DNA of 64,000 nt, taken from positions 147,064,001-147,128,000 of the forward strand of contig CM097885.1 of the NCBI GenBank assembly GCA_044892525.1. The letters are read 5' to 3'. Each line of letters begins with the position of its first letter. The first letter of the stretch is position 1. Both the position numbers and the translations under genes were made by a program. Below the pieces are notes generated by a model, which saw only the letters and a list, made by a program, of their open reading frames with translations, did no database searches and was not told the origin of the DNA. This document shows, in pieces, positions 16,291 through 62,513 of this stretch. The stretch comes from Schmidtea polychroa. Its lineage: Eukaryota.

Positions 16291-16489
16291 CAATCAAAGC
16301 CTTTTCGTTATAAGTAAGAACATTTATATTATAACCTGGATTTTGTTGTTCAAATTTACTTATATTTGATAGTTTCATCGGCATATCATTAGGATCAAAT
16401 TTAATTTCAGAAAGATTGTATGAATTAGGGCGATTTCTATATTGCCTATTTATACTATCATATTTAATAATTGACAAGAAACTATACAA
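16280..16489 (-). pseudogene. Inverted fragment of the Polinton PolB N-terminal region
   Basis: DMPMKLSNISKFEQQNPGYNINVLTY resembles the FPxKLxDIxKFEKxN...INV segment found N-terminal in Polinton polymerases, but lies antisense to the polymerase body. Confidence 0.6.
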
Positions 16490-16539
16490 AAAACAGAAGT
16501 GGTCATTATTAACTACATTAATGAGACAGCTTAAGTTTC

Positions 16540-18383
16540 TTAAAGATTCTTTTTGCTAAGATTGACTCATTAACTGTTAAATTTATAGACTCTTATCAAT
16601 TTGTCAGCGAGTCTTTAAATAATGCTGTCAAAACTTTATCATCTTTACCCTTGACCGAATCAGAATTTCAGGGTACCATAATAACTGCAAAGGGGATTTT
16701 TCCTTATGATGCCGCAACTTCATTAGAGGTTTTACATAACACTCGTCAGTTACCTCCTATTTGGAAAGATGTGACTCCCGCTGAATATGAGACAGCTCAG
16801 CGAATTTGGGTTGAAACTTCATGTACTTCACTTTTCGATTACATGATGGTTTATTTAAAACTTGATGTTTTCCTTTTAGCCGATTTTTTCCAGCAATTTA
16901 GAGCTAAGTCCATTGCTCATAACCGACTAGAGCCATTAAATTTCTTAGGGATTCCAGGTATGTCTTGGAATTCAGCCTTATTAACTTTAAACTCTCCAAT
17001 TGAGTTCCTCACCGATATGGAGATGTATAACTTTTTCGAGGGCGGTATCCGTGGCGGACTAACTTTTGTAAATAAACATTATGTAAAAACAGACCCGAAT
17101 ACCGCTTTGCTTTACATAGATATAAATAATTTATACGGTTGGGCTTTAAGTCAACCATTACCTTGCAGTGACTTTGAATGGGTTACTGATGATAATTTAT
17201 TAAATAATATAATTGTTGAATGCACAACGGTAGATTTAGATCTGCTTGATTATGGTTATACCATATAAGTGGATTTAGAAATACCGATGTCAATTCACGA
17301 CAAACTGGACGATCTTCCCGTTGCCGCTGAAAAGATGTGTGTACCGGGTTCGAAAATAGAGAAGCTGTTGCTTACACACAGCCCCAAGAGGAACTATGTT
17401 CTTCATTGGAGGCTTCTACAAATATTTATTAAATTAGGTGTTAAAATATCAAAAACACATAGAGCAATTAAATTTAAACAAGATAAAATTTTCAAAAATT
17501 ATATTAATTATTAAACAACAGTCTTTACGGCAAGACTGTTGAAAATCTTAAAAAACGTATTAATTTACGTCTGTGTAATTCTTCACAGAGATTATTAACA
17601 TTCTGTTCGAAACCGACTTTTCGTAAATCCACGAAAATCGATGATGACTTGATTTCGGTTTTATTGAGGAAGGACATAGTGTGTTTGAATAGACCTAGTT
17701 ACATTGGTCAAACCGTACTTGATTTATCCAAACTCAGGATGTACCAGCTGCAGTATGAAGAGTTGCAAAAATATCGCGACGAATTCAACTGCGAAATTAA
17801 TATCGTTGCTGGAGACACAGATTCCTTCTTCTTGGAAATTAAACATTGTAGACTTGACATTCTTTTACCTGCGATGATTAGATATCAATTATTAGATACT
17901 TCGAATTATGACCCAAATCATCCTTTATATAGTAGGAACTTTGATTCTGTCATTGGTAAATTCAAAGACGAGAATAAAGGGTTATTATATAAAGATTGGG
18001 TGTTCTTGAGACCTAAATGTTACAGTTTGATGGGTGTTGAGGAAAGTATGAAGGCTAAGGGGATAAGTATGAAAGATACTGGACTAACACATCAGTCGTA
18101 TCTAGATTGTTATTTAAATGATAAAATATACACAGTCCCTCAGTTTAGAATAACGTCAAAAAATCACCAACTTTTTAGTATTAAAAATAATAAAAGAGCC
18201 TTGACATGTAGAGATGATAAGCGAAATTGGGTGGATAAAAATCAAAGTTTGGCATATGGCCATTATAGGGGCGGTGACACCGATATATTTATAGATTCAA
18301 CGGAAGCTATCTCAGCAGATGATACAGATGATTTCCATGATCCAGCAGATGATAATTATTTTGGACATGATTATTTTCGATGA
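16540..18383 (+). pseudogene. Protein-primed family B DNA polymerase (pPolB), fragmented by stops/frameshifts
   Basis: FIDSYQF, KGIFPYD, YLKLDVFLLAD, GIRGG, YIDINNLYG, DTDS, GKFKDE, LRPKCYS, KAKGI and DDKR motifs in order across ORFs 16651-17268, 17269-17514 and 17649-18383. Confidence 0.93.
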
Positions 18384-18833
18384 TGTGTTTAAATTATTTA
18401 ATAAATGTATTAGTCATATTGTCTTGAATATTTTTTAACAGTAACTTTGTGAACAATTTTTATACATTGTGTGTAATAATAATATGTTAAAGTTTCGTTA
18501 GTTACCTTTATGACCTTTACCCAGTGTGTTAATAAATTTTAGTGTATATTTAAAGTATAATTTCTTTGTTAACATTAACAAAGAAATTATACTTTAAATA
18601 TACACTAAAATTTATTAACACACTGGGTAAAGGTCATAAAGGTAACTAACGAAACTTTAACATATTATTATTACACACAATGTATAAAAATTGTTCACAA
18701 AGTTACTGTTAAAAAATATTCAAGACAATATGACTAATACATTTATTAAATAATTTAAACACATCATCGAAAATAATCATGTCCAAAATAATTATCATCT
18801 GCTGGATCATGGAAATCATCTGTATCATCTGCT
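18314..18833. repeat. 520-bp perfect palindrome (259-bp arms, 2-nt spacer at 18573-18574)
   Basis: AGCAGATGATACAG... is mirrored exactly by ...CTGTATCATCTGCT; lies next to an N gap. Confidence 0.9.
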
Positions 18834-19074
18834 TGAATATTTGTGACCTTTACCTTTGTGACCTTTACNNNNNNNNNNNNNNNNNNNNNNNNNNNNNNNN
18901 NNNNNNNNNNNNNNNNNNNNNNNNNNNNNNNNNNNNNNNNNNNNNNNNNNNNNNNNNNNNNNNNNNNNNNNNNNNNNNNNNNNNNNNNNNNNNNNNNNNN
19001 NNNNNNNNNNNNNNNNNNTTACATTGTTTAATAATATCATTGTACCCTTGCGAGTTGTTGAGCGTGACCAGTAC

Positions 19075-19512
19075 CCTTGTGAGCAGTACCCATAAGGGGA
19101 CAGAATATTTTGTCGGATAGAGTCGGAGTATATAGATTAATAATAATAATATATCAATAGCTATCGATGAGAACACTAACTTGTTGCGTGTGTGGACACT
19201 AATAATATTTTTTATATCTTGTGTGTGTGACAGAATATCTTGTCTGATAGACTATATTGTGTGTAATAATAATTTTGTCAACTTAACCGTCAAAATAAGT
19301 TTTTAAAATACCGCAACGTAATATAGTTAATAATTAAAATGTAATAAATTTTAAAATACCGCAACGTAATATAAATTTTAAAATACCGCAACGTAATATA
19401 TTTTTAAAAAAATTAAAAAAACCCTCCCCCGGGGGGTATGGCGTCATATGTCTTTGTGACGTCATCGATGACGTCATATGTCTTTGTTCCCGGGTCCACA
19501 CAATACCCTACT
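19075..19512 (-). repeat. Right terminal inverted repeat of the Polinton
   Basis: Reverse complement of the left TIR with shorter poly-T/A tracts; followed by TSD GAAGTT. Confidence 0.92.
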
Positions 19513-23259: not shown

Positions 23260-23720
23260 TTAGTAAATTGCACGGAATTCCTGGAAATAATCCGCAATGA
23301 AGAATACGTCCTATTTCAGGTAATTTAACATTTTGTTGCTATTTCACTGAGTTCGAATTTGTTGAGCAGTAGCATATTCATCTCCAGATACAGAATCCCA
23401 GATAGAAGACAATTCAAAAGTTGATTCAAGGACCTAAACGATGTATCAAAGTCATAAGGAAAGATATCCTTGGAACTAACAATTGCGCCATCCAAAGCAG
23501 AAGTTAATAACTTTTACCAGTGATGAATTGACAAACTGCATGCTGTCAATAAGCATTGTCAATATACGCGATGAGAGAGATAAATATTTCAGTAGTAGTC
23601 GGAATAATATTTAATTCCCAAGAAGGAAAACTATTCAGACCATACTTCAAAATATGATGGAGATCATAACCCTCAAAATGTCAAATACAACACGTAACTA
23701 TTTCTGAATTCTTTGAGAAA
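23260..23720 (+). pseudogene. Possible Helitron helicase remnant
   Basis: FKDLNDVSKS...LTIAPSKAEVNNF resembles the Helitron PIF1-helicase segment (xPDL...AILAPxNxxVxxIN); heavily decayed. Confidence 0.3.
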
Positions 23721-24876: not shown

Positions 24877-25560
24877 TCAAATTTCCTCCTTCTTTGTTCT
24901 TCTTGTTCTTCCTTTACCTGATTTTCTTTCGACCCGTACCATTTTTCCCTGCAAGTCTTTTTTTTCAAAAACTATCTCTGCCGGGCTTTTTCCTGTCGTT
25001 TTTTGTTTGGTTGCATTTAATGTAAATGCGACTTCTGGTAGTATCTCGGCCCAATCCGTCTTATTTCTATCTCGTAAAGTAGTATTTATCAGTTCTCGTA
25101 TTGTCCTGAATTGCCTTTCTATCTGTCCATTTGTTTGGTGATGGTATGGACTCAAAAGCCATAACTTAATGTCAAGTTTCTTTGTGAATTCTCTCATCAT
25201 TCCTGATTCAAACGCTTTCCCACAATCAACTCTTATCTCCTTTGGGCATCCAAATATTAAAATCCATTTTTCTAAAATCGTTTTCTTTATTGATTCCTCG
25301 TCTTGTCTTGACATAGCTGTCAAGACTTGATACTTACTATACTGGTCTATTATACCCAATTTATACTTTTTACGTCCTCTTGTTTCTTGCATTGGTCCAC
25401 ATATATCCACGATATATCCTGTTTTTTTACTGGTTCCTTCGTTATAATTGTTATAGCCTTGGTGTTTTGAGAAGTCTCCTGAATCTGACTCTACAGTTTT
25501 TTTCCAATATATCTATCTTGCATATAATCAGCTATCTTCTTGACTCTAGCATAACACAAT
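24877..25560 (-). pseudogene. Gypsy integrase
   Basis: DICGP, IIDQYSKY, RVDCGKAFES, SPYHHQTNGQIERQFRT (DDE core). Confidence 0.85.
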
Positions 25561-25734
25561 AGTCTATGTATTTCCTTTATGGTTTCTTGTATCTCGTTTT
25601 CTGGTATCATCGTTTTCTTTCGTAATTCTTCTTCCAAATTTATTTGTTGATTGTTGCTTCTACTTTCTTCTCTAGTAATCTAGTTTTTATCTTTCCTTTC
25701 TTAGCTTCTTCGTGAGCCATTTGGAAATATGGAA

Positions 25735-26640
25735 GGAGCCACCTGGTGATGCAGCAATTCCAAACGGCATTCTATTGAAACAGTATTGCCCTTTCTTTGT
25801 TGAGAAGGCTGTTTTCTCTTGCTCTTCTTCGTCTAACCGCATTTGGTAATATGCATTACCAAGATCGATTGAGTTAAATAAATGGAACATCCTAACAAAT
25901 CTAACATCTCGTCTATGTTTGGCATTGGGAATGCCTGCCTCTCTGTTACTGCATTCAGCTGTCTGAAATCCAAGCATAGCCTAATCTTTGTTCTCTTTTT
26001 TCTATACGCAGAATAACGGCGTGTTTCATGGGAAGTTGCATTTCCGTATAATTCCATTTTCGTATAAATTTTGTATTGCTTCTTCAATTTTTGTTTCCAA
26101 ATTCAACGGTTGACGATATGGTTTTAGGGGTATTGGTTAATCTCTTGTAATTATCTTATGTTTTACTAAATGCGTTCGACCCACATCCCTTTTATCTGCC
26201 ATAAACACGTTTCCACTGTTCGTTATTATTTCCTTTAATTTACTATTCTCGTTAATCTTTAGATGTTCCAACGCTCGCGTCAATCGTTCTTCATCCTTTA
26301 TTTGTCTGCCGAATTTTGCTTCAATGTTACAAATATAGTTCTTGTCTTTTTCACTATATTCGATATCTTTCTTTTTTGCCAGTCTATATCCAAATGATTC
26401 TTGTAATTCTACTCCTCCAATCACCTCTGGTGTCACTTTCTCCGCCACAATGAATCTAACTTCCTTGGAAATATCTCCGATAGTTACTTTAACCTTTGTC
26501 TCTATCGTACTTTCGTTTGCACATCATAACTTATCGTCGTTTCTCATCAATTGTTGTCCTCGTAACTAGTTAAAACAGTTAACACTCATTACATTTATTC
26601 GTGCTCCGGTATCTAATAAACAGTCGAAAATTTCCCCATT
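25735..26640 (-). pseudogene. Gypsy protease and truncated reverse transcriptase
   Basis: FDCLLDTGARINVMS near 26590-26635; LCLDFRQLNAVT, AFPMPNIDEML, IDLGNAYYQ, FCFNRMPFGIA-like segment, then an abrupt junction at ~25735. Confidence 0.8.
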
Positions 26641-26896
26641 CATCATTACTGTTACACTAGTTCTTCCCTGTAGGTTGTTATACACAATTTCTACCTCCTG
26701 CCCCGTTTCAATTGTTCCAATTCTTTCCACTTTTCTCTCCTTAGGAACCTGTATACTTTCTCACTTAACCTTCCTACATTCTCCCACTTTTCTACCCCTT
26801 GAGGATATCCCATCCACTTTCCTGTTAGTATATGGCTCCAACCAACTCCTCTACTGGTGGAGCCCTGTTGTTTAGGTACGTCCTAATAAATTATCT

Positions 26897-27828
26897 TCAT
26901 TTGTCTCTACGCACGATTCCATTAATCCGTCTGTATCTGTTTCCTGTTGGTCTTTGTTTCTCTATCGTTTTCTTGTAACTCGACTTTGTATAACATTCTT
27001 CAGATCTCTGACCATTTTTGTTGCATCTTTTACACCGTATTTCTTGACATAACCATCTTATATAACCTTTCTCACAACCAAAACATCTTGGCACTTCTTT
27101 ATCTGGACAATTATTACTTATATATCCCCTTCTGCACTCTATCTTACTTTTTACTGGACAGTCTATTTTCGTGTGGCCTATTTTGTGCCTTATCCAGCAC
27201 TCTAGTTTTTCTCGTTACCTGCCTTATTCTTTTCATCTTTCTGCGTGTACTGTCATCTTCTTTGTGGATCCTAATAGACCACTCTTGAATTACTTTTCAT
27301 AGCGTTTATCTGATCTCTCTGTTTGCCCACTTTATCCATCAGAATTAATGTTTCCTTTATCTCCTCTGTGCTTTTTATCTTCCGCAATATTACGTCTTTC
27401 TCAACTTCTTTATTCTCAGCACATACTATCAACATCTTTGCTATTATTTTCTCTTTGGTGAATTCTTTATTCTCAACCAACCTGTCGACAAGCTCCTCCA
27501 CTTTTTTAAAATATGTTTCAATCTCTTCGCCTCTTCTTTTACAATTCAATAAACTTTCCATATCCTTTATTACGTCTCTTTCGTAATCAAATGCCATTCG
27601 TAAACTGGCTTGAAATCCTTCTCCTTTTTTAACTGTCTTTGCATATTTCTCCAATAGATCCTCGTCGATCATATATGCAGTCAATCTTTCCTGTTCTTTT
27701 TTATTGATGCCTTTAGCATCGAAATAAATCTCGCATCTTCTAATGAATTTTTCCAAGTCATCACCTTGACAAAGCACCCTTGGCAACAATCTTTCATTAA
27801 TCGCGTCGGTGTTTACCGCTGCCACCAT
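26897..27828 (-). pseudogene. Gypsy gag with degenerate zinc knuckles
   Basis: ATG at 27828-27826 in frame with ORF 27271-27870; CFGCEKGYIRWLC and CKRCNKNGQRSEEC in 26897-27094. Confidence 0.75.
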
Positions 27829-30148
27829 ATTAGGATTCTCATCCGTTACAACATTAATATCTGGTTCCAAATCACTAAATAATTAAAGAAATTTTATTCA
27901 AGAAATTTTACACTCAACAACTTGTTTTTTCTTATTTTTGTTATTTAAACAAATTTCGATTTTTTTTTAATATTTTTCGATAAAATTATTTTTTAAATTT
28001 AACAAAGTTTCTAATTAAATCTTTAAGAATCTTTCAACTTCCTCGTCATCATTATTTTTGGTGATCGTTAGCTGTATGCTCACTGCAAACTATGTGGTAT
28101 TTTCCATTTATTAATATTATAATTATGGCTAATCACGCTTTAACACAGATGTTTAGCAAACATCTATATGTTACTTTTTCAATAAATTGGAAATTTTCAG
28201 TAATTTCAGTAATTTTCAGTAATTTCATATATTTGTGTAGACCATTCGGTAATATTATTGTTGAACAAAAAATGTGGGTTGTGATCAAAATGGGAAACAC
28301 CAAGTAAACATCATAAAAGAGATATTATAACGCCAAAAATAGAAAAGACGAAAGTAAAGTAAATTAATAACAAAAGCAAGAATATATAGAACAAAACAAA
28401 CAAACATAACACATGTTAGATGACAGTCGCAGGCCGATTAGCACATTTGTCCTAACAAGCAATTATGGGACTGGGCAGAATAAATTTAGAGTAAATGTGT
28501 ACAGTGAGAATCAATAAAAGCCAGTTGAATTATCAAAAAAATCATACAATCCAATTGAGAGCCAAAAAAATTAACCAAATCCCATCAATAATCTATGTGA
28601 CTTAATTATCCTTGGTGACTTAATTCAATTCTATTTTATTATGACAATTTAATTTTATTTGTCTGTGTCGAAAATGTATTATTGTATTCATATGGTGGTA
28701 GTGTGACAATTCAATTTCAGTCAATTGGTGATCAAATGTGACTTAATTATTTTTATTTATCTTATAGATTTATATTTTATGGTGTAAATAATGGTTAATC
28801 TTTTAATTTTATATATTGTAAATAATTGAGTTTTTATAATTTAGAGACGGAAATTACTTTAATCAAAAATTTGTTAAAATAACAAAATAAATTTTTAAAA
28901 TACAAAAAAAACAAAACAAATATGGAGAAATTCTTTTAAGAAAACACATGGAGGAATTGAAAAATAAATAAAGAGTTCCTTTCAAAACAAATAAAAGGCT
29001 TTTAATATTGAATCTATAACTTTTAAATAAATAATTTTAAAAGCAAAAATAAAAACAAATAAATTTAATTTGGTATAAATAGGGCCAGTAAATTCAGTTC
29101 AATCACCCCAAAAAATTAAGTCGTAAGCAGACTAGTAAATTTTGGAAGGAAATCCTTTGAAAACTTTTAAATTAGGACAGTACAAAATATAAAAGAATTT
29201 TAGTTGATACACAATAAATTTTTTTTGCATAAATAATAAAACAAGCACATACTGTCAAACAACACAAAAATACACACACGCATCTATCTGATAAATTAAA
29301 GTCATTCAACAATAAAAGCTTTTCATTTAAGGTGAATATTATTTTATTTAAATAAACATTTATAACCGGNNNNNNNNNNNNNNNNNNNNNNNNNNNNNNN
29401 NNNNNNNNNNNNNNNNNNNNNNNNNNNNNNNNNNNNNNNNNNNNNNNNNNNNNNNNNNNNNNNNNNNNNNNNNNNNNNNNNNNNNNNNNNNNNNNNNNNN
29501 NNNNNNNNNNNNNNNNNNNNNNNATCTCAAATAGTGAGACCTCAACACACAAATAACATATAGAAAGTAAACAAAGTCATATTAATGGCAATAAAAGAAA
29601 CGAGGAACTGGAAATGAAAAGATTTCCACAAAAACACTAGAATATTCTATAAAAATGGTGAATTCAAATCTGGTGCTGACATGAGCAACAACTAAATATA
29701 ACAATAAAATTTAGAAAATTAAATCATAAAAAAATAATAAAAAAAACTTGAATATTAAAAGAAAGAGGAATGATAAAATAAAACTATTAGAAATAGCATA
29801 AAATATTCTCAAAAATGGCCATATCCATCAAGGTAGCGAATTTAATTAAAATTAAATAAAATATTAAAATTAGAAAATGAGATAAATCATAAATAATAAA
29901 AGCTCGCCATCAAAATTGATAAAAATTGAGATAAAAATTAAATATAGTTAAAATAATTCGAATTTTTTTTTATTGTATCAGTGCACACACACAAAAATTA
30001 TGATATATAAGTAGACGCATTTCCGTTTTAAATCAGTAATTTTGGGGCGATCAAATTTTATTTAATTGATCTATAGTACAGTCAGACTATATATATATAT
30101 ATATATATAATATAAAATTAGACTAATTTTTGGTAATAAGAAACTAAG

Positions 30149-36300: not shown

Positions 36301-36727
36301 TTCACTAACCTANNNNNNNNNNNNNNNNNNNNNNNNNNNNNNNNNNNNNNNNNNNNNNNNNNNNNNNNNNNNNNNNNNNNNNNNNNNNNNNNNNNNNNNN
36401 NNNNNNNNNNNNNNNNNNNNNNNNNNNNNNNNNNNNNNNNNNNNNNNNNNNNNNNNNNNNNNNNNNNNNNNNNNNNNNNNNNNNNNNNNNNNNNNNNGAC
36501 AGTGATTTATAAATATTAAATAAAAAATTTTCATTAAAATAAATTTAGGACTAATGTTTATATTTAGCTTCAATTATTCATGTAGGAAAAATAGAAGATA
36601 TTTCATATATTTACATAAACTCTCTCATTCTATACGATGGATTAATATTGAAATATTAACCAATCACAATCGCCTGTGAATCCTTTAATAAACAATGTAA
36701 TTTTTTCTTTCAATATAATATTTCCTA

Positions 36728-37226
36728 ATGATGCATGAATCAAACGATCTGATTTTCATTGATCAATCCGCAAATTCATCACCGAAAAAATTCTTCAAAC
36801 AACAACAATGTCAAATAATCTATCCAAAAGAAGTTCCGAAAATTTCATTGTCAATTCCTGAGCAGCATTCGTATTTTCCTACAAGACATTCTGTCAGTTT
36901 TGAAATACCAAAAATTCGATTGGAGAACATGGCGAATAAAGTTTCATGTCATTCTGACGAAACCGACAACGGATCCAGACGATTCAGTGATTTGAGTAGT
37001 GGCTTGAAAACCAGTTCAAGGAATATCAAGCCAGTGCATCTCGTGAAGCAGGAAGCAATCTGTGAGTCTCAAGCAGCCTCGAAGGAAAGTCTTCGACTAA
37101 TTAAATCTATGAATAACAGTCCAAATCTCTCTGGGTCGATTATTGAGTTTTACAAAAAGAAATTCTCATTAACTGGCATTGATGCCATTAGTTTGGATTA
37201 TATGCGAGCAAATGGAAATCTTCGAG
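36728..37226 (+). CDS. Probable host-gene coding exon, product unknown
   Basis: ATG ORF with balanced composition (Ser-rich, SLTGIDAISLDYMRANGNLR) ending at a canonical donor CGAG|GTATTT; no transposon motif. Confidence 0.55.
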
Positions 37227-38224
37227 GTATTTATTAAAAGTATTTATTAATTGTTCGCAACTTATATATTCACAATGCATTTTTTTAAATTTTTAAATAC
37301 GTTTATAAATGTTAAAATTAAATTAAGAAATTATTTTTTAAATAATTTTATAAAGTTTATATTTAAATTAACAGGTTTTTGTCATCAAAAGAAAAATAAT
37401 AATAAAATTAATAAATATAAAATGGTGTTTTTGATCAATTGTTGACAAAACAACAAATTTAATTAAAAATTTTATTAATATATTGTTTAATTTAAATATT
37501 TCTCATTATTAATTATTAAAATTACTTTGTGAAAATCAATAATAATTTGTTTGACTTTTTATGCAAAATTCAAATTTATTTTTTATGTACATTATAAAAT
37601 TTGATATTTTTGAGAAAATTTCAGTGAATTTCAAACTCTTTTTTTTCATTTTTGTAGTATTTTTTGCTTTTCGTCAAGATAAGTGCTTCTCAGATATTAT
37701 CGGCCTACTTGAGTAAAGCTTATTATTATGAAATCCACTAGTTTCTTTCATAACTTACATTTGAAAATAAGTTGTTTTAAAGCCAAAAGTGAGCACCAAT
37801 GCCGAATTGAGTCATATTCTAAAAAAGCAGCGCCTTGCATGAAAAAACCAATATGGATAAAAGATTTTTATTAAATTAACAACAAAAATTAAAAAAAGAC
37901 TAGTCTAAAACTTCAAGACTGCTTAAATGTTATGAGAGTCTTCCTCATAAGTTTAGAAGAAAAGTGGCAGTATGATACGCATAGGTCTTTTGCATGTATA
38001 AAATTATTTGAATTCCAACCACATTAAAAATTGGTTTGTCCAGAATATAAAGTTCTTTTTTTTCGCTTTAGTAGTTTCAGTTTTCAATTTTATATTTATA
38101 GTCATCATGTAATTGCTGGCTCTTAGTAGTTCTTATACCATTTTGAGTTATTATTATTATCAGTCACCTATATAAAATAAAATAAAAATAATTAACACAA
38201 AACTAATCTGTCTTTGAAAAGTGA

Positions 38225-38584
38225 TGAGATTTCACGAGGGCCCATTTCACGATTCGTTGTTAACGATTCGCGCAGCAACTGCACCTGATGATGCATGGGT
38301 ATTTTGTTTCGAGTTCCTTCGTGCTCCTATTTATTTTCACGTCCCATAGGAACTGGCTTACAATATTGTAAATCCAGATTCTGGTTCTATTGTTGACCAG
38401 GTCGGGAATCATTGTTTCTGGCCGATCTCTCATTAGGTCAGTCATGTCGGGATAATAAAAATGCAAACTCTCCACAGTAACTGCAACATATTCGTCTGAA
38501 AATAAAATATTAAAAATGAAAATAATAAATTTAAATTTACCAGTGTTCGATCTCGTTTCCGATAGGAGTAGTTATGTTATACAT
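38225..38584 (-). pseudogene. Homologue of the spliced 120-aa Cys-motif gene
   Basis: MYNI... exon, GT-AG intron 38540-38497, then DEYVAVTVESLHFYYPDM...IPDLVNNRTRIWIYNIVSQFLWDVKI...PCIIRCSCC. Exon 1 is one base out of phase. Confidence 0.8.
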
Positions 38585-38639
38585 TTTAAAAATGACATTA
38601 AATGAAGAAACATATTTTTAAACATATTTCAACCAATTA

Positions 38640-39066
38640 GATATTGGCAAATAGATAGATTTCATTTTGAATGCTAGTAACAAATCCTTATACTTCAAAT
38701 TTATCAATCCTAGCAACTCTATTTTCCACTAGCAAACACGTTAACACACATGAGATTATATTTTTAAAGTCTCAAAGCACAAAATAATTCTGGTTCGAAC
38801 ATATAATTGCACTTTCTTGACATGTTGTATTAATTGATATCCACATCCATAGTTACCACAATTGATTGGATTTTAATATTATTTATTTGATATTGTAACT
38901 TATTAACATCCAAAGATTTCTTACATCCCATTATTCTGCATTTACTGGGTTTGAAAAATATTATCGGGTGTTTTGCGCTTCTATCAACAATTCGCTGTGG
39001 TTTTCCATTTAGGAACTTCATTTTAGATACATCAAAATTTCCATTATAATCTATATTTGATAACAT
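38640..39066 (-). pseudogene. TBP: TBP-like pseudogene
   Basis: MLSNIDYNGNFDVSKMKFLNGKPQ...KCRIMGCK (31/49 identical to the first copy by manual count); FEPELFCAL and VNVFASGK in a shifted frame. Confidence 0.85.
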
Positions 39067-39168
39067 TATTAAATTAATTATGAAAAATTAATCTTTATAC
39101 AAAATCTTTAGAAAGAGTTCATTAAAATCTTTATTATAAACAAAAAACTATATTTATTAAACGTAATA

Positions 39169-39625
39169 ATGGAATCAAGAAATGATGCGGTATACTAAAT
39201 CGTTGGCCCAAGCGGTAGCGGAAAAGGTTTGTTTGTTTGTAAGGTATTACATTCTCAATTATCCAAATCAAAATTGAACAAGATTTATTAGGATCAGGTG
39301 CAAATGAAGAATATGGATTGACTTAAGATAATTTCTGTAAGTTGAAAAATATGAAAATAGTAAAGGGGTTGGATAAAAACTGGTCAAGTCGGTTAAAGAA
39401 AGACGATGCCATCATTATCGATAACTTATATCAAGAAGCTAATAAAGAAAAGATTTTTAATAATTTATTTGCTAAAATCAGTAGACAACTTTATCATAAC
39501 TTATCATACACGTGTTGGTGTTATTTTGATTTTTATAACTCAAAATCTATTTTATTTGGGTGTCACACTTCGGACACTTAATTTAAATGTTCATTATTTA
39601 ATTGTTTCAAAAATCCTGGAGATGC
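39169..39625 (+). pseudogene. Packaging ATPase pseudogene
   Basis: MESRNDAVY*IVGPSGSGK; KNWSSRLKKDDAIIIDNLYQEANKEK; FITQNLF; 3'-deleted. Confidence 0.88.
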
Positions 39626-40249
39626 AACCAATTTTGTATATTGATCGGCCATCAACCCAGGAGGTAATTGAATGTTGGGCATTTTAAGAGAGTCTAAATA
39701 ATATTGAGTTTTAAATTAACGGTTTGCGAACTGAATATTTGGATTTGAACGATCTTTATTAACTGTTCAAGTCAATGTAATAGATAAAGATAAAGAATTT
39801 TTGGGTGATAAAAATGCTGCGATAACAAATTATTTCTTGTTTCATACACTTTAAAAAGATGCAGTTCTTTTATTTCATAATATCAAGATTGAAGGTGGAA
39901 ACAATAAATACATTCACACAGCATTAAAAGAAACTATGGTAAATTATAATTCCGATATTAAAAATTCATTTTTTATTCTTATGGGCTATGCGGCAGCAGA
40001 TGATGAAATGAAAAAGTGAATTAAAGACTCAAAGGTTTTCACCGTGTTCATTATTATAACTCAAATTTATGGATCAACCGAAATATTTACTTATTAAAGT
40101 TAATGTACACATCAGGTTGAAAATATTTGATTCTGAATTATCACTAACTAGTTCTGCTGGTCAACAAATATGCCAAGTAGTTGATGAAAAATTACCAGTA
40201 AGAAGAGTTCGTGTAGATCCCTCAGTATTCGCTGGTAATCAAATAGATC

Positions 40250-40423
40250 CAGTGCTCGAAGTGAGGCGGGATAGCCGGGATATTATCCCGGCATTGATTA
40301 TGTAGGCGGAATTGCATCCCGGCACTTCATTTCATATAATCTATAGGTTTATCCCGGTACTTATTTCATTTTATAGGCACACAAATACTGCAATTAAGGT
40401 CACACATAGTACATCCATTAATG

Positions 40424-40474
<51 letters not shown>

Positions 40475-41077
40475 TTTATTCTCTATTCTCTATTCAATTA
40501 AGAATTTCCCAAGCAGCAGTAATGGATAGGTAGGTATATTCTCTTATTTATTTTAGTTAAACCAGCAAGTTGTTTGTTGAGTTATTTATACTGCGACCCC
40601 CTCTATATATAATGTGTGCATGATTTCACATGCAGAGAGTTGTTATAATTAACGTGATAAGAAAACATATATGTGCTACGCAGATATACATACACATGCA
40701 CCTATTGACAATCACAATATGTAAGAGATAGGACCGCTTCAATGCCTTTATCGTACTTCTTATCCACTGTATATAGTATGAGTTTTGATGTATTAAAGGT
40801 GTGTGTGTGAAAGTGTAGGCATGAGTTTCTTGTCACGGGCACTGCGTAGCTTACACAAAATTGTTTGACACCCCCCCCACATTAAAACAGGTACACCCCC
40901 TGAAACTTATGATTAAATGGGTAGACACCTCCCCCCACCCCCCAAAAAAAAATTTGTTGGACACCCCCCCCCAAAGTTTTGCAACACCCCAACTGAAAAT
41001 TTCTGCATAAAAGCCTGGAATCCCGGGCGCCACAGCATGCCTATCCCGGCACATATTTTGTTCCACTTCGAGCACTA
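40250..41077. mobile_element. hAT-type MITE
   Basis: TIRs CAGTGCTCGAAGTG / CACTTCGAGCACTA; exact 8-bp TSD AATAGATC; internal (TA)n. Confidence 0.9.
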
Positions 41078-41322
41078 AATAGATCTTAATTATAAGAATT
41101 CTATTTATTCACTGAAGACAAAGGACATTGTATAATTTAGAATTCCCAAAGGTTCCTCTTCATTCTATAAGGATTCCTAACTTTATTCTGATAACATTTT
41201 AATCTGACATTCAATATAATAGATCGTGCACTACTTAAAGTTCAATATTCAAAAACTGATGTAACATCTTTAACTTTATCGAAAAATGACTGATTACATA
41301 TCAATAAATTATTATATAGACT

Positions 41323-41594
41323 CAGGCCCGGTTTTAAGCGTAGGCAACGTCGGTGTACGCCGACGGCGGCACTTTTTGAAGACCGCATTTTCTAATTTTT
41401 TTTGTCAATTCCAACAAGACAGTTTTTTTATAAACTGAATATTGTTTTATTTATCGTATTAAAATACAAATATATGTATTAGATATTCAGTGTTTTTCTA
41501 TTTTTCTTCAATTTAAAAATTACAGCATTTTTTATTTTTGCGGTGGCATATTCGCATCTCGCTTACACACAGAAAACTCCTAGAACCGGCACTG
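41323..41594. mobile_element. hAT-type MITE
   Basis: CAGGCCCGGTT...AACCGGCACTG imperfect TIRs; 8-bp TSD TATAGACT / TATAGATT. Confidence 0.75.
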
Positions 41595-41737
41595 TATAGA
41601 TTTATAACAATAATTATTAAAATATATAGAAAAATTAATGGGAATGATAATTATTATCATTTATCAATATATAATTCATTTTATAATTATTTCTGTATTA
41701 AAATTGAGTTAAATATAATAATATTAAAAATAATAAA

Positions 41738-41771
<34 letters not shown>

Positions 41772-44522
41772 TCACAAAATCATTACTACTTGAATGGAAA
41801 TCAAAGACAATATAATATTCACGATAGAATTAGAGATGCAGTTTGTCAATCCATCTCCTGTAAAAGTTATTAAGACTCTTTCCGATCTGGCTTTAACTTC
41901 TGATTTTGATGGTGCAATTTTTATTGGACTCCCGGTATGTCATGGGTTTGTGATTAGGCGCCAGTCATATTTAGACTGCTATAATNNNNNNNNNNNNNNN
42001 NNNNNNNNNNNNNNNNNNNNNNNNNNNNNNNNNNNNNNNNNNNNNNNNNNNNNNNNNNNNNNNNNNNNNNNNNNNNNNNNNNNNNNNNNNNNNNNNNNNN
42101 NNNNNNNNNNNNNNNNNNNNNNNNNNNNNNNNNNNNNNNNNNNNNNNNNNNNNNNNNNNNNNNNNNNNNNNNNNNNNNNNNNNNNNNNNNNNNNNNNNNN
42201 NNNNNNNNNNNNNNNNNNNNNNNNNNNNNNNAAACTTAAATATTTATTAGATACGACGAAAAATCTTTATAAAGAAATATACGATTCCTAATCCAGTGAT
42301 TATTTTCATAAATATTTTATATTTTCGAATATTTTCCATCCATTTACTTGATTTTGTGTCATTTTGAATCAAGATTTTTGTCATCATTTTTATTTACCCT
42401 TTTGGAAAATTTTGATTCTATTGCCTGAATAATAATGTTAATACTATTTAAAATATAAAATACCTCTACAGACAACTTAAAATTCTGAAAATTTACGCGA
42501 AAAAACAATGAAAATGATGAAAAATTAACCACTTTTATTTGACCTACATAAAAACTGAAATATTTGTGAAAATATCTTGAAAATCGTGAAAAATCATAAA
42601 ACTTGTCTTACATACACTTTCAGGGGAAAATTCCTCAGTAGCGGTGGCCAATCCATGTAGTTTCAAAATTTTCAATTTATGTCAATTTTTCCATGTCAGA
42701 AAAATGTTCTTTTCTCCGATTTGGAATTAATCTATATTTATATAACGAAGACAACTTATAGGTCATTTTTAAAATATTTTTGGCAAATTCTAAAAATGTA
42801 ACCTTGAAAGAACATCACTGACAATCTTCTCTGAGATAAACAATTGTTGGTGTTTACGGAGTCAAAAAATGAGATGACAACTGGAAGGAAGATGTTAATG
42901 CGAGTTTCATCACACAGTAGTAAGAAGGGATTGTCAATAACAATTAAGATGAATATCGTATGGACTTCTAAAAACCACCACACGACTATTTCGAAACGAC
43001 AGATCACCCGTGATACAGGTCATGTTGGTAATGTGATAAGTCGGCGAAAACTACAAAGCAGATGAGCCCCTTTACTCCCCTGTAGACTTTCTCTATGGGT
43101 TCAACACTGCTACTAGAAGGGTTTACGTTGAAAAATCCTACCGCTCATGCGTCCTTTCGACTTCGTCTAAGTCTGATTACCTAATTTGAAATCACCTTTT
43201 TTTTGAAATGTCATTTTTGGCCTCTACCAATGGTTCGTTCAATTTTAATTCCCCGACGGGCTCTATGATCTACGGCAGGACGACTGGTGGAGTTGACAAA
43301 TCAATCCCCACCGGGCCGGCATTATTGGCCGAGAGAGCGGCTTTGGTGGCCTGCTTGGTCCGTTTTCATTTTGTTCTTTCAGCGCAAGAGAGCTCTTCGC
43401 CCTTAGGGCGGACAGGCATTTGCTGAACCCGTGGCTTTTCTACTTGCTGTTCTGTGATGTCAGTCAATACAGGGTTAGAAGGTGGCGGCAATAAAAATGC
43501 ATATTGAATTGTAACTGCTTGCAATTTCTTTTTTATAAAGTAATTATTTCTTATCAATTACTTATTGGGTGCACCAAAATTCAACATTCCAACACAATCA
43601 TGGCAACCCTAAACAATTAATTTAATTGGTATTTCAAAACTCCATAGCTTATTGTGAAAATGGCATTATGAGCTCAAAATATCTCCAAACATAGATAATA
43701 ATAAAACATGTGCAAATTTCAGGACGCTATAGGAAAGATCTCATCTTATAATTACAATAAAAATAATTATATTGTTATATTTATTTTTTATTAATTGCTA
43801 TTGATTTCTATTATTTCTGTGTGAATCAATAGCAAGTCTTAGTTATGTCATTGATAGAAATAACACAGACATTATTTATAGCTTACATTAATAATAATAT
43901 GGTAACGATAGTAACATAGCATCAGCATATGGGAATTGTACAGTCGTAGAATAAAACAAATGTATATTTGATTGTTTAATCACAAGGCAAAAATATTCGC
44001 TACGCCTAAGAAAAACAAATCAAATTAGCGTTACATAATAAAAGGAGTTGCACTTGTGTTGTTTTCTTGGAAATATGAAATTTTGTACATATCTTTTGTC
44101 ATCAACCATTTAATCATACATCATAAAAAACATTCGGCTTTTTTTCAAAAACTTTTGCAGATTTTTTACCTCAACACTTGATAGTTAGAAACTGAAATAA
44201 TAAGTAAAATAAAATGATATTTCTGAATGAATAATTATTATAATCAACAATAAATTTACTTTATATACAAACTTGTAGTGGTAACCTCATTTTATAACTT
44301 GATTTCCTTTTATAAGGATGTTTGAAAAACGATATTTGCTAAGCATTTGAGGTTTGGTCATTCAATTTGATAAAGAAGACATTAGGTGAAATAAGAATAT
44401 TCGACATCATTTGAAAGAATATTCATGTGGTTTATCATTAAATTGTTCTTCATTGACAAAATTTAAATTTTTTCATAAAACTTTAGGCGTAAATGGATTA
44501 AACAATAATTACAATTACAATA

Positions 44523-49402: not shown

Positions 49403-52400
49403 CAGCGCCGGCTCTAGCATTAGTAGCGCCCCGATGCGAAACTCATTTTAGACGCCCATTTATTTTATTGGTTTTTTGGAATTAACTTAATTTAATTGGC
49501 AATATTAAATTTGTAATAAAAACATTAAAAAATTAATAATAATTCTTTTCCAAGTGAAATACAGGTTTTATTTTGTTTATATATTTTTTTATTTTATTGA
49601 AACAATATTATAATATACAAAAATTACATAACATACATATATTTTGTATAAAAATTGACAAAACTCTTATTCTAGATATTTACTTTTCTAGCTTTTAAAC
49701 TGGCAAATTCATCAATTAAATTATGTATATCTAATTTGTCACATATATCACTTTCAATCGATATCATTGCTAAACCAACTAATCTTTCTTGTGAAATTGT
49801 TGATCTTAAATAATTTTTAATTAGTTTAAGCTTCGAAAAAGATCGTTCTCCGCTAGCAACTGAAACTGGTAAAGTTAAAAATATTTTAATAGCAATTACA
49901 AAATTGGGAAAAATGGAATCCAGTAGATTTTTATATATATATTGCAAGATGTTTAGTGGGTTTTCAAAGTCTTTCAAAAATTCCTTTGCTATTTTTATTT
50001 CATTAAATAATTCTGTTGCAGATATATCTTTTTTCTCGCCATCGGTTAGCATTATTTCTAAATCAGAACAATGTTTTTTTAATGTATTATCATCCATTTT
50101 GTTAATTTCTTTTATATTATGTATAAATTCAAATTTTTCACTATATTTTGTGAAAAGATTAAACCTTTCTTTTAAAGAATTGATAGTAATATCTAAAATT
50201 GGCAGAAAAAATGATATTTTATATTTAAGTATCGGATCAACTGGCGTTTCGTCTACAGATTCATAACCAAAAATTTTTTTCTTTCTTCTTCGTAACGTAT
50301 TATCTTTGAATTTCGCAGGTATTTCTAAATCAGCTGCTATATTTTCTGCCGTTTGAAGAATAAGACTAAAATTTTCATCGGATCTATATTCTTCAATAAA
50401 TTTAATAAGACTATTTAACGCAACTGAAGAAACATTTAAGTTTTGATTTGGATTTTGGAGCAGTTTACTAACAACGTTAACTTTACTTAAAACATCGTAC
50501 CAAATAACCACTGAACATATAAATTCATACTCTTTTATTTTGAAAGCCACAGCCTTAGCTTCATGCTTTGTATTATTATCTATTTCTAGGTTTTCATAAA
50601 TGTCAACTAAAGCATCTAAAATTTCAGCTATTTCAAACCTAAGTGGACGAAGGGCATCGACTCTTGATTCCCACCTGGTGGCTGACAAAGGTTTTACTGT
50701 AATTTTAGTATTTTTTTTAAGAACTCCCATCGTTTTGTTGAAGCGCTAAAGAAATTATAAATTGTTTGAATAGTGGAAAAGAAACTAAATGATTCTGTGT
50801 TAATTTTGGCTGCATATTTCACTATTAAATTAAGTGTATGTGCAGCACATGGGACGAAAAATGCACGAGAATTCAAATTTAAAATACGTTTTTGGACCCC
50901 ATTATTTTTCCCATGCATATTTGCGCCATTATCGTAACCTTGTCCACGTAGATCATTAATATTCAAACCTAAATCTTTAATGTTGTCAATAAGATAAGTT
51001 GCTAAACCTTTTCCTGTGGAGTCAGATACTTTTAAAAATCCCAAAAAATGTTCGCTTATTGCAACTTCATTATTTTCATCTTTATTGACAAATCTGGCTA
51101 TAAATGTCATTTGTTCGTTATGACTAATATCAGGAGTGCAATCTAATATTAGAGAAAAATATTTGGCATTAATTATCATTTGAATAATATTTTGCAAAAT
51201 TTTCGAAGAGATCAACGATATTATTTCATTTTGTATAGTTTTGCCTAAATAATGAACTGTTTGTGTCTCCTTTTTTTGTATCTTTGCTAAATGATTTGCT
51301 ATTACTATGTCAAATTTAGAAAAAAGTTCTACAAATTTTAAAAAGTTACCGTTATTTTTTTCATAGATAGTATCTGACGAGCCACGCAGAGACAGACATT
51401 GTCTGGCAAGATATTTTATGATTTCGACAATTCTCTCCAAAACAGCGTACCAATGTTTCTTTTCAACTGCGTATACTTTTACGAGTTCAGCATCTATTGT
51501 AGTTAAGTTGTTCATTTTCTTTTTTAATTGAGTCCACTTTAAAAAACAATTAACATGTAATGTACTAACTTCATGAGCTGCAAGTGTTTTTGACAAATTT
51601 ATCCAGCAACTAAAACCATTTATAATCAAATGCTGGTTTCCTTCTATTTGATTTATAAACAATTTACAACAAAAACAGAAAACACGGTTTGCTGAACTTG
51701 AATAAACTAACCATGATCTTGGTATAATTTCATTATTAGGTAATTTACGATTGTAATAATAATTAGTAAAACTTCGTCCATCATCATCACGGCGATAAAC
51801 TTCTTTCCTTATTTGCATTGGTCCTTGCTCAATAATAATTTTTCTAATTTTATCATTAATAAATTTAGGCCAAGTTGCGGGATCAATTGAATGAAAATCA
51901 GCACTATTACTTATAGTTTCAGTTAAATGTATGGTTTGAAGCTCTTTGTTAGATGAAGATGTTATTTCTGTTTGTAAATTTATAGATTGTGTCTCATTAG
52001 TGGCATTATTTCTAACTTCACCATTTGTGCTATCCTCTGGAATAATCTGATCATCCGTTAACTTTATTGTAGGTATTGTCAAATTTGCTTTTTTTAAATA
52101 TTGGTTAAGGCTTCCCTGATTTTTTTGTTCCTCCAACTCTCTCTTCGCCTTTCGTTTTCGATTTTCACACCCGGATAATTTTGTCTTTGAATTCATATTT
52201 TATGATATAGGTAAGCTAATAAAAATTTTTTTTATTAAAAAAATATAAATTTTAGAAGTAAAGATAAAAATAATTAAATAATACCTACCACCGTACAATG
52301 ATTCAATTCCGCAAAATAACTAATGTACTGAAACAAAACACTTTTTTACTATTAAACTGTACTGAACACTTTTTTATTTTACTATTAAAATTTTAATATT

Positions 52401-57532: not shown

Positions 57533-58814
57533 ATTCTTTTGGATTCGGCATTCCAAAAATTCACCAAAATAACCCATTCAAACAAATATTCTGCCACTCT
57601 ATTAATCAAAAATTACAAACTAATTAAAATAAAAATTACCACATACCTATTGCTCGCGTCTGTGTGCGCACATCCATATTACCATAAGTCTGCACACAGA
57701 CGAGACAACACTCAACAAACAAACTGCCAGTCAGAGGTAAATGCCATTCTCCCTCTCACTGGTCGAAACAGATAGTCCTTATCAAGGACTATCTTACAGT
57801 CGAAACATTTTTCATTAAATACATTATTTGCAGCAAAAGGCTTAAATTAACATTTTATTATTTTAATTAATAAATGCTGCTACCAAGAAATCATCACTTT
57901 ATACCAGTCGTTCTCAAACTTTTTTGTTCACGACCCAAATTTTTGACATTTCATGCCAAAAATTTTATTGCGACCCACATGACAAAGATTAATTTTAAAA
58001 TAAATGTTTATTTAATGAGATGAATGTAGTTGCTTAAGTTCAAGTATTTTTGACATCCTTGGTGAATAATTTTTACTCAAACATATTCGAAGATCGTTTG
58101 AAATATTGAGTTGGTTTCTTTGCTTTGTCTTTATTTGAACCAATGAGATGGATGGATAGAAATAAAAGAACTAAAATTCCATGAAATTGAAAAGGGCTAT
58201 CTTATAGTCAAAAATTTCTTCATTTCTATTAAATATATTATTCGCAGCGAAAGTCTTAAATNNNNNNNNNNNNNNNNNNNNNNNNNNNNNNNNNNNNNNN
58301 NNNNNNNNNNNNNNNNNNNNNNNNNNNNNNNNNNNNNNNNNNNNNNNNNNNNNNNNNNNNNNNNNNNNNNNNNNNNNNNNNNNNNNNNNNNNNNNNNNNN
58401 NNNNNNNNNNNNNNNNNNNATTTAAGACTTTCGCTGCGAATAATATATTTAATAGAAATGAAGAAATTTTTGACTATAAGATAGCCCTTTTCAATTTCAT
58501 GGAATTTTAGTTCTTTTATTTTCCAAAATGCTATTTGATCTTCTCTTTTATTTAAGTTTTCTTACTTCTCATTGTGATTAATTGTCGATAATCGCGTCTG
58601 TGTGCGCTTTGAACTGGTTTATGGAGGTTTTTTTGTGTGCGCACACAGACGCGGACAATTGTGAAAATTGTCAGTTTTTTTTGATTGGATGGAATTTTAT
58701 TTTTTGTGTGTTTTTTTGCTGGATTCGAATTATTGTTGGAGTTATGTTTTCTGGAATTGTGGTTTTAAAGAATGGATTTATAATTTTGATTTGAATTTTC
58801 GGCCTTAGTGAAAT

Positions 58815-59901: not shown

Positions 59902-62513
59902 GACAATGACGAAGAGATTTTAGAAGAAGGACTGTGGAAAAAGAGAATGAAGAAAGGAAAATTAACGAGATTGAGAAACAAGATTCTCAATGATATACAT
60001 GGGAAGGAAGTTAGCGAATGGTTGGAGGAATATGAAGATCAAAAGGAGAGTCTAGATGAAGAATTAGGGGATCTGAGAACGATCAGTAAAAAATTGCAAA
60101 GATTGGACATCACTACAATCTTAGATAAAGACCTGTAAGAGATCGAGGAAAAACATCAAATGATTGGGGCACTGATGGAAAGAAAAGCAAATCAATCTTT
60201 TATGGAAGAGAAGGAAAATGTGAATGATAATACAATCAAGAAAAATAATTCAGTGCATAAAAGAAAACTGGAAAGTCTACAGAAAATTACAATACGTCTT
60301 TGAAGGTAAGATGAAAGAGTACGAACCATTGAAAGCAGCTTTTACGGGGTGTGTTGACGAAGCGGAAGGTGATAGGTTGAAAAGATGTTTCACCTGCACA
60401 AGTACCTTCACGGAGAGCCATTGAAGTTAATTGAAAATCTAGGATATTCGGATTAGGCCTATAAAATGGCAAAAGAGAAGTTGGATAGGCGATATGGTGG
60501 GGATGAAAGGATATATTTATCAATGTTAGAGGAGATGGACAAGTTCAGGCTAATTCGAGAAGGAGATTTGAAGGATCTAGACTTATATTTGTTGGATTAT
60601 TAGAAGCAGTCGACGTTCGATTCAAATCCACTGGGAAAGAATCCGAGTTAAAAACTGGATATCTGTTTCAAAAGTGTTTGGGCAAGTTAACGACGAATCT
60701 TGTGTATAAATGGAAGAAAGACAAAATTGAAAAGGAATTGCGGAAGACAATAGAGGATTTGAGAAGATGGATACAACAAGAAGCGGAGATCCTAAGGTCC
60801 ACTAACGAGGTCGTGTATGGGACTCAACCGAGCACCAGGACTTATGATGGGCCAAGAGTAGAAGGAGTGTCTAGAGGAAGAGAAAGCCTCAATCCAGGAG
60901 GTCGGACGCATTTTACGAGGCAACCAGATGGCAGAGTTAAAAGTGGAACTGTCATACAGGCAAATAACTCTAACTTCTATAGATCAGAGTGTGTACATTG
61001 TGGTGGTCAACATTACCTAGACCAGTGTGACAAGTTCAAGCAACTCACAATTTCTAAAAGGAAGAAAGTCATCGAAGAAAAGAAACTGTGCGGGAATTGC
61101 TTCAAAAGAAATCACATGGCCAAGGAATGTTGTAAAGAATCTTTCTGCAAGGTTACCGGATGTAAGCAAAGACACGACGAATTATTAAATGAAAGACAAA
61201 TCAGTAAGGAGAGTGAAAAAGGTAACAACACGATGTTGACCCAGAAAGGGATGAACGAGAAAAACCTAAGACCTTACCTTAGTTTAAGAACAATTCCAAT
61301 CTACCTGGAAAATGGGAACAAGAAAATAAAAGTCAATGCACTGTTAGATGATGCAAGCTCAGTAAGCTACATCAATCTAAGAATTTTAAAGGAGCTTGGG
61401 TTAAAAGGGGTTGAAAAGAGGACACCGATAGGGGTTATCGGCGGTAATGTCCAACAAATGATGGCTACTCCAGTGACCATGGAGTTAATTAGTAATGACG
61501 GCCGATTGACGAAAAACTTCAACGCATTGGCCGTAAAAATTATCACAGGAGAAATGAAGGTAGTAAATTGGGCAAGAGAAAAACATAAGTGGACTCACCT
61601 GAAGGGCATCCATTTTCCGATGCTAGGCGAAAGACAGGCAGTTGAAGTGTTAATTGGCGCTGATTATTTAACGCTTCAACGAGCACTCAAAGAAATCGAT
61701 GGTAAGTTGGATGAACCGATTGCCCGTTTAGCTCCACTTGGCTGGACATGTGTTGGAAGAACCTCGGTGGGAAGAACTTGGAATCATCAAAGCAATTTCA
61801 TAAGAACGTTCTTTGGTAATTGCGATGATTTGCAAAAACAAATGGAACGATTTTGGGAGATTGATGAAAGTGGCTTAAAGGAAAATGGTAGCAGAGCGTC
61901 AATGAGGACTGTTCAGAGTTATTTTGCGGGAACTGAAATGTTAAATGACGAGTTACGTGCATTTCGGGGAATTGAGGACACGCAACTCGACGGGAGTAAG
62001 GCATCTAATGAAGAGCAAGGAGCTCAGAGTCATATAGATGGGCAAATATTCAATTCTCGAGGAACTAACGAATTAGTTAACGTTATTACAATCACACAAA
62101 GTATTCAAGGAAAAATGAATACAGGGGAAAAGCAAGATGAGGCTTGCCGGGCTGGTGAGATCATAAAATTATCTGAAGATAAAATTGTGAAACCGAAGAC
62201 AACGGAAGTGTTGAGTAATTGGGAAAAAGGCAAACCAGCATCAGAGGATCTAACGCCCGAGGCGGCAGTTAATGATATTCAGGTCGACGAAAGGGAAGTT
62301 AATCGACTAAAGGAAGAACGTGATAATGATCAAGGGGCCAAAGAAGTTTTAGATTTAACAGAAAAATTGAACGAATCATCGAACAGTTTCAAACAACAAG
62401 GATCACTGGAACTCGTTTGCACGCCTCTAAAGATGCACATGAAAGACAAGGTGCCGATTATGGAATTGAAACACGAAGCAATCAAAGAACGACTTTTTAG
62501 GATGCGCTTATAA
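59902..62513 (+). pseudogene. BEL/Pao Gag-protease polyprotein, disrupted
   Basis: KKGKLTRLRNKI N-terminus; FEGKMKEYEPLKAAF...AKEKLDRRYG; CVHCGGQHYLDQC, CGNCFKRNHMAKEC, CKVTGCKQRH; VNALLDDASS. Confidence 0.88.

Follow-up and report, generated by a model that had tools for sequence, protein, structure and literature searches.

A decayed Polinton in Schmidtea polychroa belongs to a capsid-encoding lineage with its own TBP homologue and a putative matching promoter word

The stretch of DNA analysed here, 64,000 nucleotides of Schmidtea polychroa (assembly GCA_044892525.1, contig CM097885.1, positions 147,064,001 to 147,128,000 of the forward strand; called the window, in whose numbering all positions are given), contains two related Polinton/Maverick copies. 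Copy 2, which is the main subject, is an old, thrice-deleted and dead copy, in which a spliced gene, a TBP gene, an ATPase gene, a capsid gene and scraps of the DNA polymerase PolB can be recognized. The locus belongs to a selected and widespread capsid-encoding lineage with its own TBP, and the value of a dead locus lies here in the evidence it gives of long maintenance. The TBP of this lineage is likely a late-promoter factor, predicted to bind the word TATAAACA and to recruit host TFIIB and RNA polymerase II, a reading to which we give a probability of about 60%.

The order spliced gene (minus strand), TBP (minus) and ATPase (plus) is found again in copy 2, about 24.7 kb away from copy 1, as stated in the initial annotation, with amino acid identities of 49%, 50% and 55% between the copies (E values 3e-33, 4e-32 and 8e-31). 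The limits first given for copy 2, 38225 to 41985, are too narrow: the internally deleted relic, on the plus strand, reaches roughly from 38147 to 42483. Its left end is lost, its right arm is decayed, and neither paired terminal inverted repeats (TIRs) nor a 6-bp target duplication was recovered. Leftmost lies a broken Cys-rich gene (38212 to 38584, minus strand), which belongs to no known family and for which Pfam gave no match. It is called spliced on account of a conserved GT..AG position, here a predicted intron at 38496 to 38540, which recurs at the matching place in the spliced gene of copy 1 and of families A, B and F. No joint across this predicted intron was seen in the contigs checked, and T-tails in one run, 11 to 15 nt past AATAAA at the end of a related allele's spliced gene, are a weak hint of expression. 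The TBP-like gene (38658 to 39066, minus strand) is broken by two stops in 38722 to 39066 and by further frame breaks outside that interval.

On the plus strand, the word TATAAACA occurs at 39135 to 39142, 34 nt ahead of the start of a broken gene for an A32-type packaging ATPase (39169 to 39629), of which only amino acids 1–146 remain. The deletion of about 3.3 kb that cuts this gene removed the remaining ATPase, a pVII-like open reading frame (ORF), the integrase, the penton and PZ, and it is one of at least three deletion zones, the others lying between capsid gene and PolB and inside PolB. At 41836 to 41985 (plus) three collapsed scraps of a protein-primed PolB follow in natural order and match residues 743–771 (E 7e-8), 860–867 and 1257–1267 of a related natural PolB; the peptide RQSYLDCYN, earlier suspected to be a PolB scrap, is one. 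A run of N fills 41986 to 42231, and 42234 to 42483 is a probable remnant of the right arm, on the indirect evidence of DNA matches of 73–78% whose loci are placed beyond the ends of PolB or themselves match element arms. The idea that the deleted form of copy 2 was itself a mobilized family was rejected: the first deletion junction is spanned by none of the others among the 39 matches listed, and because it is unique among these, copy 2 did not spread in deleted form. A 172-residue frame at 36719 to 37237 (plus), which adjoins copy 2, has no Pfam match, ends near a GT and is probably a host exon.

Motifs of a Polinton-type capsid protein had been proposed downstream of the copy 2 ATPase, and a colinear match to a major capsid protein gene is indeed found there, in two broken pieces on the plus strand: 39631 to 40245 (residues ~26–241) and 41079 to 41287 (residues ~239–316, with the rest deleted). 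When its stop is read as X, the capsid piece matches 149 other places in the genome at 65–69% identity, many of which lie in open frames of 427 residues, and the natural 427-residue frame sits between PZ and an adenovirus-type protease. The identity of copy 2 to this frame is 60–74% in the main pieces, and the best match scores 112 bits, compared with at most 21.2 bits for shuffled sequences (n = 50) and 20.8 for the reversed protein. Sequence searches of Pfam and PDB with the natural frame gave no matches. The structural model made from 112 sequences (predicted local distance difference test score, pLDDT, 92.1) is a double jelly-roll, which aligns with a capsid chain of PBCV-1 over 352 residues (Z 27.6, root-mean-square deviation 3.1), and the top 16 rows of the structural search are all viral capsid or scaffold proteins.

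The capsid gene had also been thought to run through two miniature inverted-repeat transposable elements (MITEs). The two insertions prove to be dispersed repeats; each has terminal inverted repeats and an 8-bp target duplication, and MITE 1 (40250 to 41077, with hAT-type ends and the duplication AATAGATC) lies inside the capsid match. MITE 2 (41323 to 41594, with one mismatch in its duplication) lies beyond it. Since the protein match stops at 41287, ahead of MITE 2, and the DNA-level match at 41296, only one MITE interrupts the capsid gene. Capsid sequence past MITE 2 was rejected, 41836 to 41985 being the three PolB pieces, and of the interval 39625 to 41930 once assigned to the capsid only the part up to about 41290 retains that assignment. 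The candidate penton of the relatives, a conserved ORF of 320–360 residues upstream of PZ and the capsid gene, is named by its position; it has no Pfam match, and we take it to resemble a single jelly-roll penton.

The relatives of copy 2 are abundant in the host genome that was searched (781 Mb, AT-rich, four large contigs). The TBP of copy 1 has at least 150 matches there at 96–100% identity, with stops in none of 150 scored (4,128 candidates), and the TBP of copy 2 at least 149 other matches at 76–78%, with stops in none of the 149 listed. TBP and the capsid gene occur within one 10-kb stretch in nine of the ten family-A loci fetched, with PolB in the next stretch, and together in eight of the nine family-B loci; the other five TBP alleles sampled, C to G, likewise all lie in elements with a capsid gene, and in one of these the genes stand in another order. 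These elements extend over more than 15 kb. Their PolB frames have 1,350–1,390 residues; when the N-terminal OTU domain and PolB class of adintoviruses (Alpha/Beta) were looked for, the full protein gave only a weak endonuclease VII match at E ≤ 1e-3, and a fragment matches PF03175.

Outside the genome there are 76 database proteins homologous to this TBP, and a profile search gives 61 clusters at E ≤ 1e-30. When 62 metagenome contigs with TBP are considered, 28 carry another Polinton gene and 10 the capsid gene, which is present on 5/5 contigs longer than 7 kb. The capsid proteins of distant metagenome elements with TBP are only 30–59% identical. The longest contigs among TBP and capsid database matches have equal sizes (20066, 22064, 10087, 5485 and 5852), which is only suggestive, and a viral-contig collection scanned with TBP, capsid and ATPase gave no matches. 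A distant capsid protein was used to search the genome for a Polinton without TBP, but TBP was present in all the elements examined. The initial annotation had postulated an ancestral capsid-bearing polintovirus with TBP. This is supported, and since TBP and capsid genes occur together in present-day copies and metagenome contigs, the ancestor need no longer be postulated. It is by gene content that the elements would qualify as viruses.

Two variants of gene order were seen among the relatives. In one family (L238–L243, L248–L249) PolB is inverted and orfA-TBP stands at the other end, with TBP kept despite the rearrangement. The other, from metagenomes (L081, L086, L090–L094, L100, L109), has the protease, then a conserved Cys/His-rich ORF of 170 residues that starts with IDFEAF, and then TBP. 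This ORF has no Pfam match and is presumably nuclease-like.

The earlier proposal that TBP was maintained long enough to diverge can be judged by the ratio of non-synonymous to synonymous substitution rates (dN/dS, method of Nei and Gojobori; dS is often near saturation among the seven TBP alleles). For the TBPs of copies 1 and 2 the ratio is 0.37 (bootstrap 0.18–0.64), that is, not near 1, and for copy 2 versus family B it is 0.19 (0.10–0.34). In 21/21 pairs among the seven alleles it lies between 0.16 and 0.36, with every pN/pS interval below 1, and TBP is under purifying selection. Capsid and ATPase are under tighter constraint (0.03–0.15), the capsid with 0.06–0.15 in all 15 family pairs. 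The capsid of copy 2 versus families A to C gives 0.28–0.35, and the raised dN/dS of copy 2 fits decay after insertion.

The N-termini of the two TBPs are identical at 31 of 49 residues, as noted initially, but when this is taken as a sign of distinct subfamilies the age of the split is overstated. Between families A and B (L039 and L154) the ATPase, integrase, PZ, capsid and protease are 94–98% identical, while identity is 60% for TBP, 53% for the spliced gene, 52% for the penton and 54% for PolB; in copy 2, decay has been added. Because the A and B cores are nearly identical while their TBPs differ, the elements cannot be dated by the divergence of their TBPs, and the TBP alleles are either swapped or diverge faster than the core. 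A quick tree, made from 38 rows without bootstrap, places 19 Polinton TBPs on one side of a branch (SH-aLRT 99) that separates them from the six host and four cellular TBPs, and the copy 2 TBP is sister to the family B and F alleles, again with SH-aLRT 99.

The protein itself is a reduced TBP. The 154 residues encoded by copy 1 are TBP core throughout, and their model, made from 66 sequences (pLDDT 95.6), aligns with human TBP over 142 residues (Z 12.6, root-mean-square deviation 2.5), so that both repeats of the two-repeat saddle are covered. The best structural matches are all TBPs, with Z of 10.5–12.6 versus 6.3 for others; Rep proteins show a related fold with Z about 6. In the model the first repeat is about 30 residues shorter: it has no helix 1, and only four residues of helix 2 remain. 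E91, E93, F38, F95, F111, R44, M46 and N109 are invariant in 66/66 homologues, and these eight residues are retained in 96–107 of 108 more distant proteins, among which N6, R99 and C107 drop to 62–72. Three of the four intercalating phenylalanines (F38, F95 and F111) are thus invariant, while the first-repeat stirrup position is K, P, S or T. The first repeat, including this position, was aligned by hand, and the second by HMMER alignments. We take E91 and E93 to be the TFIIB contacts, and the yeast numbering used for Polinton TBP is partly our assumption. Positions that face DNA carry new, near-invariant residues, among them the equivalents of yeast I194, V203 and L205. In yeast TBP, mutation of these three alters TATA specificity, as the set for position 2 (PMC1636458, in the part consulted).

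The word TATAAACA is concentrated in the morphogenesis arms of the elements. In ten arms (six alleles of the host genome and four metagenome contigs) it occurs 55 times in sense and never in antisense orientation, when 5.6 occurrences are expected; in eight PolB frames it occurs twice versus 2.2 expected, and the host background of the motif is 0.42 per arm length. TATAAA is followed by CA in 55 of 109 cases. When start codons are scanned for YATAAACR within 80 nt upstream, the motif is found ahead of 16/19 ATPase starts, in 15 of these at 32–37 nt, and ahead of 8/10 pVII-like and 7/9 capsid starts. The corresponding figures are 0/23 for TBP, 1/9 for orfA and 0/5 for PolB. Ordinary TATA and CCAAT words are seen by eye ahead of several TBP and orfA genes.

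To see how TBP and word could act together, consider an element whose TBP and orfA genes have ordinary TATA/CCAAT promoters and are transcribed first, by host factors. The viral TBP would then bind TATAAACA ahead of the packaging, integrase and capsid-module genes, in preference to TATAAAAG, its remodelled first repeat presumably reading the C at TATA position 7. The invariant E91 and E93 would bind TFIIB, host TFIIB and RNA polymerase II would be recruited to drive the packaging and capsid module, and the loss of the first-repeat helices may free the viral TBP from host TBP regulators. The full claim is that 15-kb polintoviruses of animals, as a widespread clade, transcribe their genes in a two-step cascade by means of one minimal gene, a stripped TBP with a rebuilt DNA-reading face, which takes the place of host TBP at a core promoter of the elements' own, TATAAACA, while it still docks host TFIIB. 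This claim is tentative, and we place it somewhat short of even odds.

Several points weigh against a late-promoter role for the viral TBP. According to its title, PDB entry 1qn3 is a crystal structure of wild-type TBP with the adenovirus TATA box in a C(-25) variant. The motif lies within 80 nt of only 1/10 PZ, 1/8 penton, 2/5 protease and 3/10 integrase starts, some of which are uncertain, and the PZ word is found about 100 nt upstream. The ten arms are related and not independent, one word serves TBP alleles that are only 53–67% identical, and the counts of invariant residues are inflated by the way in which homologues were collected. The viral TBP has R99, C107 and N109 at the position-2 specificity sites, yet the motif retains the ordinary 5' half of TATA. 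Because every Polinton examined carried TBP, the dependence of the motif on TBP is putative. Since host TBP binds the C(-25) variant and since ATAAACA, as we assume, fits the forkhead consensus, host factors could read TATAAACA.

If host TBP/TFIID or a forkhead factor reads the word, the viral TBP could serve as a decoy: by binding TFIIB or further host factors it would weaken transcription or defence in the host. This would suit a protein that has kept the TFIIB-contact glutamates and lost one of four intercalating phenylalanines together with the equivalent of R196, it would use the ability of host TBP to bind the position-7 C variant (1qn3, by its title), and it would account for TBP alleles that, like the penton, diverge or swap faster than the core, which is the pattern of host-facing genes. 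We nevertheless regard it as unlikely, in that the motif is excluded upstream of the TBP gene itself (0/23) and in that the new residues with the highest invariance, N6, R44, M46, S66, T68, R99 and N109, in a partly assumed numbering, map to the DNA-facing sheet rather than to the outer surface. Still less probable is a viral TBP whose binding to AT-rich DNA serves some other end, for example to bend the termini in protein-primed replication, integration or packaging, with the motif unrelated to it. The TBP gene is near the element end in both gene orders seen, and the Rep proteins share a related fold, but their Z of about 6 is to be compared with 10.5–12.6 for the best matches, all TBPs, versus 6.3 for others; furthermore, the TFIIB-contact residues are retained, and the motif stands at core-promoter distance from start codons.

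Hardly any weight can be given to the view that TBP is a recently captured host gene and a functionless passenger. The host does have several divergent TBP paralogues, some of them intronless, but recent capture is contradicted by selection (dN/dS far below 1 for all allele pairs), by the tree, in which the clade is separate from host TBPs, and by the presence of TBP in metagenome elements so distant that their capsid proteins are 30–59% identical. It is a separate matter whether the lineage now moves only as an intragenomic transposon and makes no particles. Both copies in the window are without whole capsid modules, as such a life would allow, but the low dN/dS of the capsid in 15/15 family pairs and the module exchange between families, which fits co-infection or co-replication, make a transposon-only existence rather unlikely.

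Membership of the lineage among Polintons can be read from copy 1 (11673 to 19512, plus strand), a young, internally deleted family-A element. Polintons/Mavericks are defined by long TIRs beginning with AG and a 6-bp target duplication. Both are present in copy 1, which has the ends AGTAG...CTACT, six differences in 213 nt of TIR core, and the duplication GAAGTT. Its genes are orfA, the Cys-rich gene with predicted intron, a TBP-like gene (13936 to 14400, minus strand; open, 154 residues; PF00352, E 8e-15), an A32-type ATPase (14504 to 15142, plus; PF04665, E 3e-7), a pVII-like ORF, a partial RVE integrase (PF00665, E 2.5e-7, just under the curated cut-off, with a chromodomain hint; deleted in copy 2) and a partial protein-primed family B polymerase (fragment; PF03175, E 1e-12). 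TATAAACA occurs at 14470, 15116 and 15567, around the ATPase. No capsid genes are left in copy 1, the adenovirus-type protease of the relatives (PF00770, E 7e-7 and 5e-6) is deleted in both window copies, and neither has a complete capsid module. orfA (12745 to 13155) is a conserved protein of 115–140 residues, found in tandem or divergent orientation on 20/62 metagenome TBP contigs; it is a candidate TBP partner without matches in Pfam, PDB or Atlas.

From this gene content it follows that the lineage is a Polinton/polintovirus one. In common with the Polintons/Mavericks of Krupovic et al. 2014 (PMC4028283) it has protein-primed PolB, RVE integrase, packaging ATPase, adenovirus-like protease, double jelly-roll capsid, TIRs and a length of about 15–16 kb; it differs from these in having a homologue of TBP and a word shared upstream of its genes, and in the text of that paper at hand "TBP" and "transcription" are not found. 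Adintoviruses/MELD viruses (Starrett et al. 2021, PMC8502044) have the same gene set in animals, and module swapping is described for them. In the portion of that paper covered, TBP appears only as a label in the legend of Figure 5, there is no clade or residue analysis, and "promoter" occurs 0 times. TBP is not mentioned in the consulted part of PMC6431247, nor are TBP or TATA found in the main text, as far as available, of Jeong et al. 2023 (PMC10748475). No description of a Polinton TBP clade or its promoter was found in the literature, and subscription papers, Repbase, figures and bioRxiv supplements may hold one.

The closest functional parallel is the viral TBP (vTBP) of beta- and gammaherpesviruses (KSHV ORF24, EBV BcRF1; PMC7498053, in part), where a TBP mimic and a non-canonical TATA word ahead of structural genes are combined, as here. 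The vTBP is a domain of a large protein, binds RNA polymerase II directly, acts in a six-protein complex and reads TATT late promoters (same source). The Polinton TBP is predicted to act likely in a similar way, but as a stand-alone protein of 144–170 residues that keeps the TFIIB stirrup and would use TATAAACA. It lacks the polymerase-binding N-terminal domain and is not a member of the vTBP family, so that the likeness is one of action only. The TBP-like proteins of nucleocytoviruses (BFVD matches, E 1e-7 to 1e-3) share the fold, but at 8–22% identity. Nucleocytoviruses bring their own RNA polymerase, which these elements do not. With cellular and archaeal TBP (PF00352) the Polinton protein shares the two-repeat saddle, the YEPELFP stirrup and three of four intercalating phenylalanines; it differs by a short first repeat and by the polar residues that its DNA-facing sheet carries.

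A self-encoded TBP with a matching promoter word bears on the timing of capsid genes in Polintons and on whether these still act as viruses. If the proposed role is correct, viral TBP mimicry extends from large viruses to 15-kb elements, and no smaller virus would be known to possess a general transcription factor of its own, in an independent parallel to herpesvirus vTBP. There would then be a natural altered-specificity TBP, probably in thousands of copies in the genome, a minimal TBP with which to dissect the surfaces needed in initiation, and a host genome with very many extra TBP-like genes that need silencing. Planarian Polintons are reported to be silenced by piRNA and de-repressed in differentiation (PMC8532177, in the part consulted).

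The host also carries several divergent TBP paralogues (L179–L187) and, among the matches listed, 13 intronless TFIIB-like frames of 301–310 residues in two clusters, C3 38.2–39.1 Mb and C1 23.8–24.2 Mb (L253:4575–5486, L254, L255), so that general transcription factors appear to have expanded in the host. TATAAACA was found upstream of 0/5 TFIIB-like frames checked. Elsewhere in the window, a frame of 668 residues without Pfam match lies at 60507 to 62513 (plus), and near-perfect long palindromes at 18314 to 18833 (259-nt arms) and 58160 to 58521 (181-nt arms) may reflect fold-back rearrangement or assembly artefact. On the minus strand are a third Polinton relic, a PolB scrap at 23269 to 23433 with 46% identity to copy 1, an integrase region like that of long terminal repeat retrotransposons at 24877 to 27882, and a hAT transposase in two frames at 49672 to 52199.

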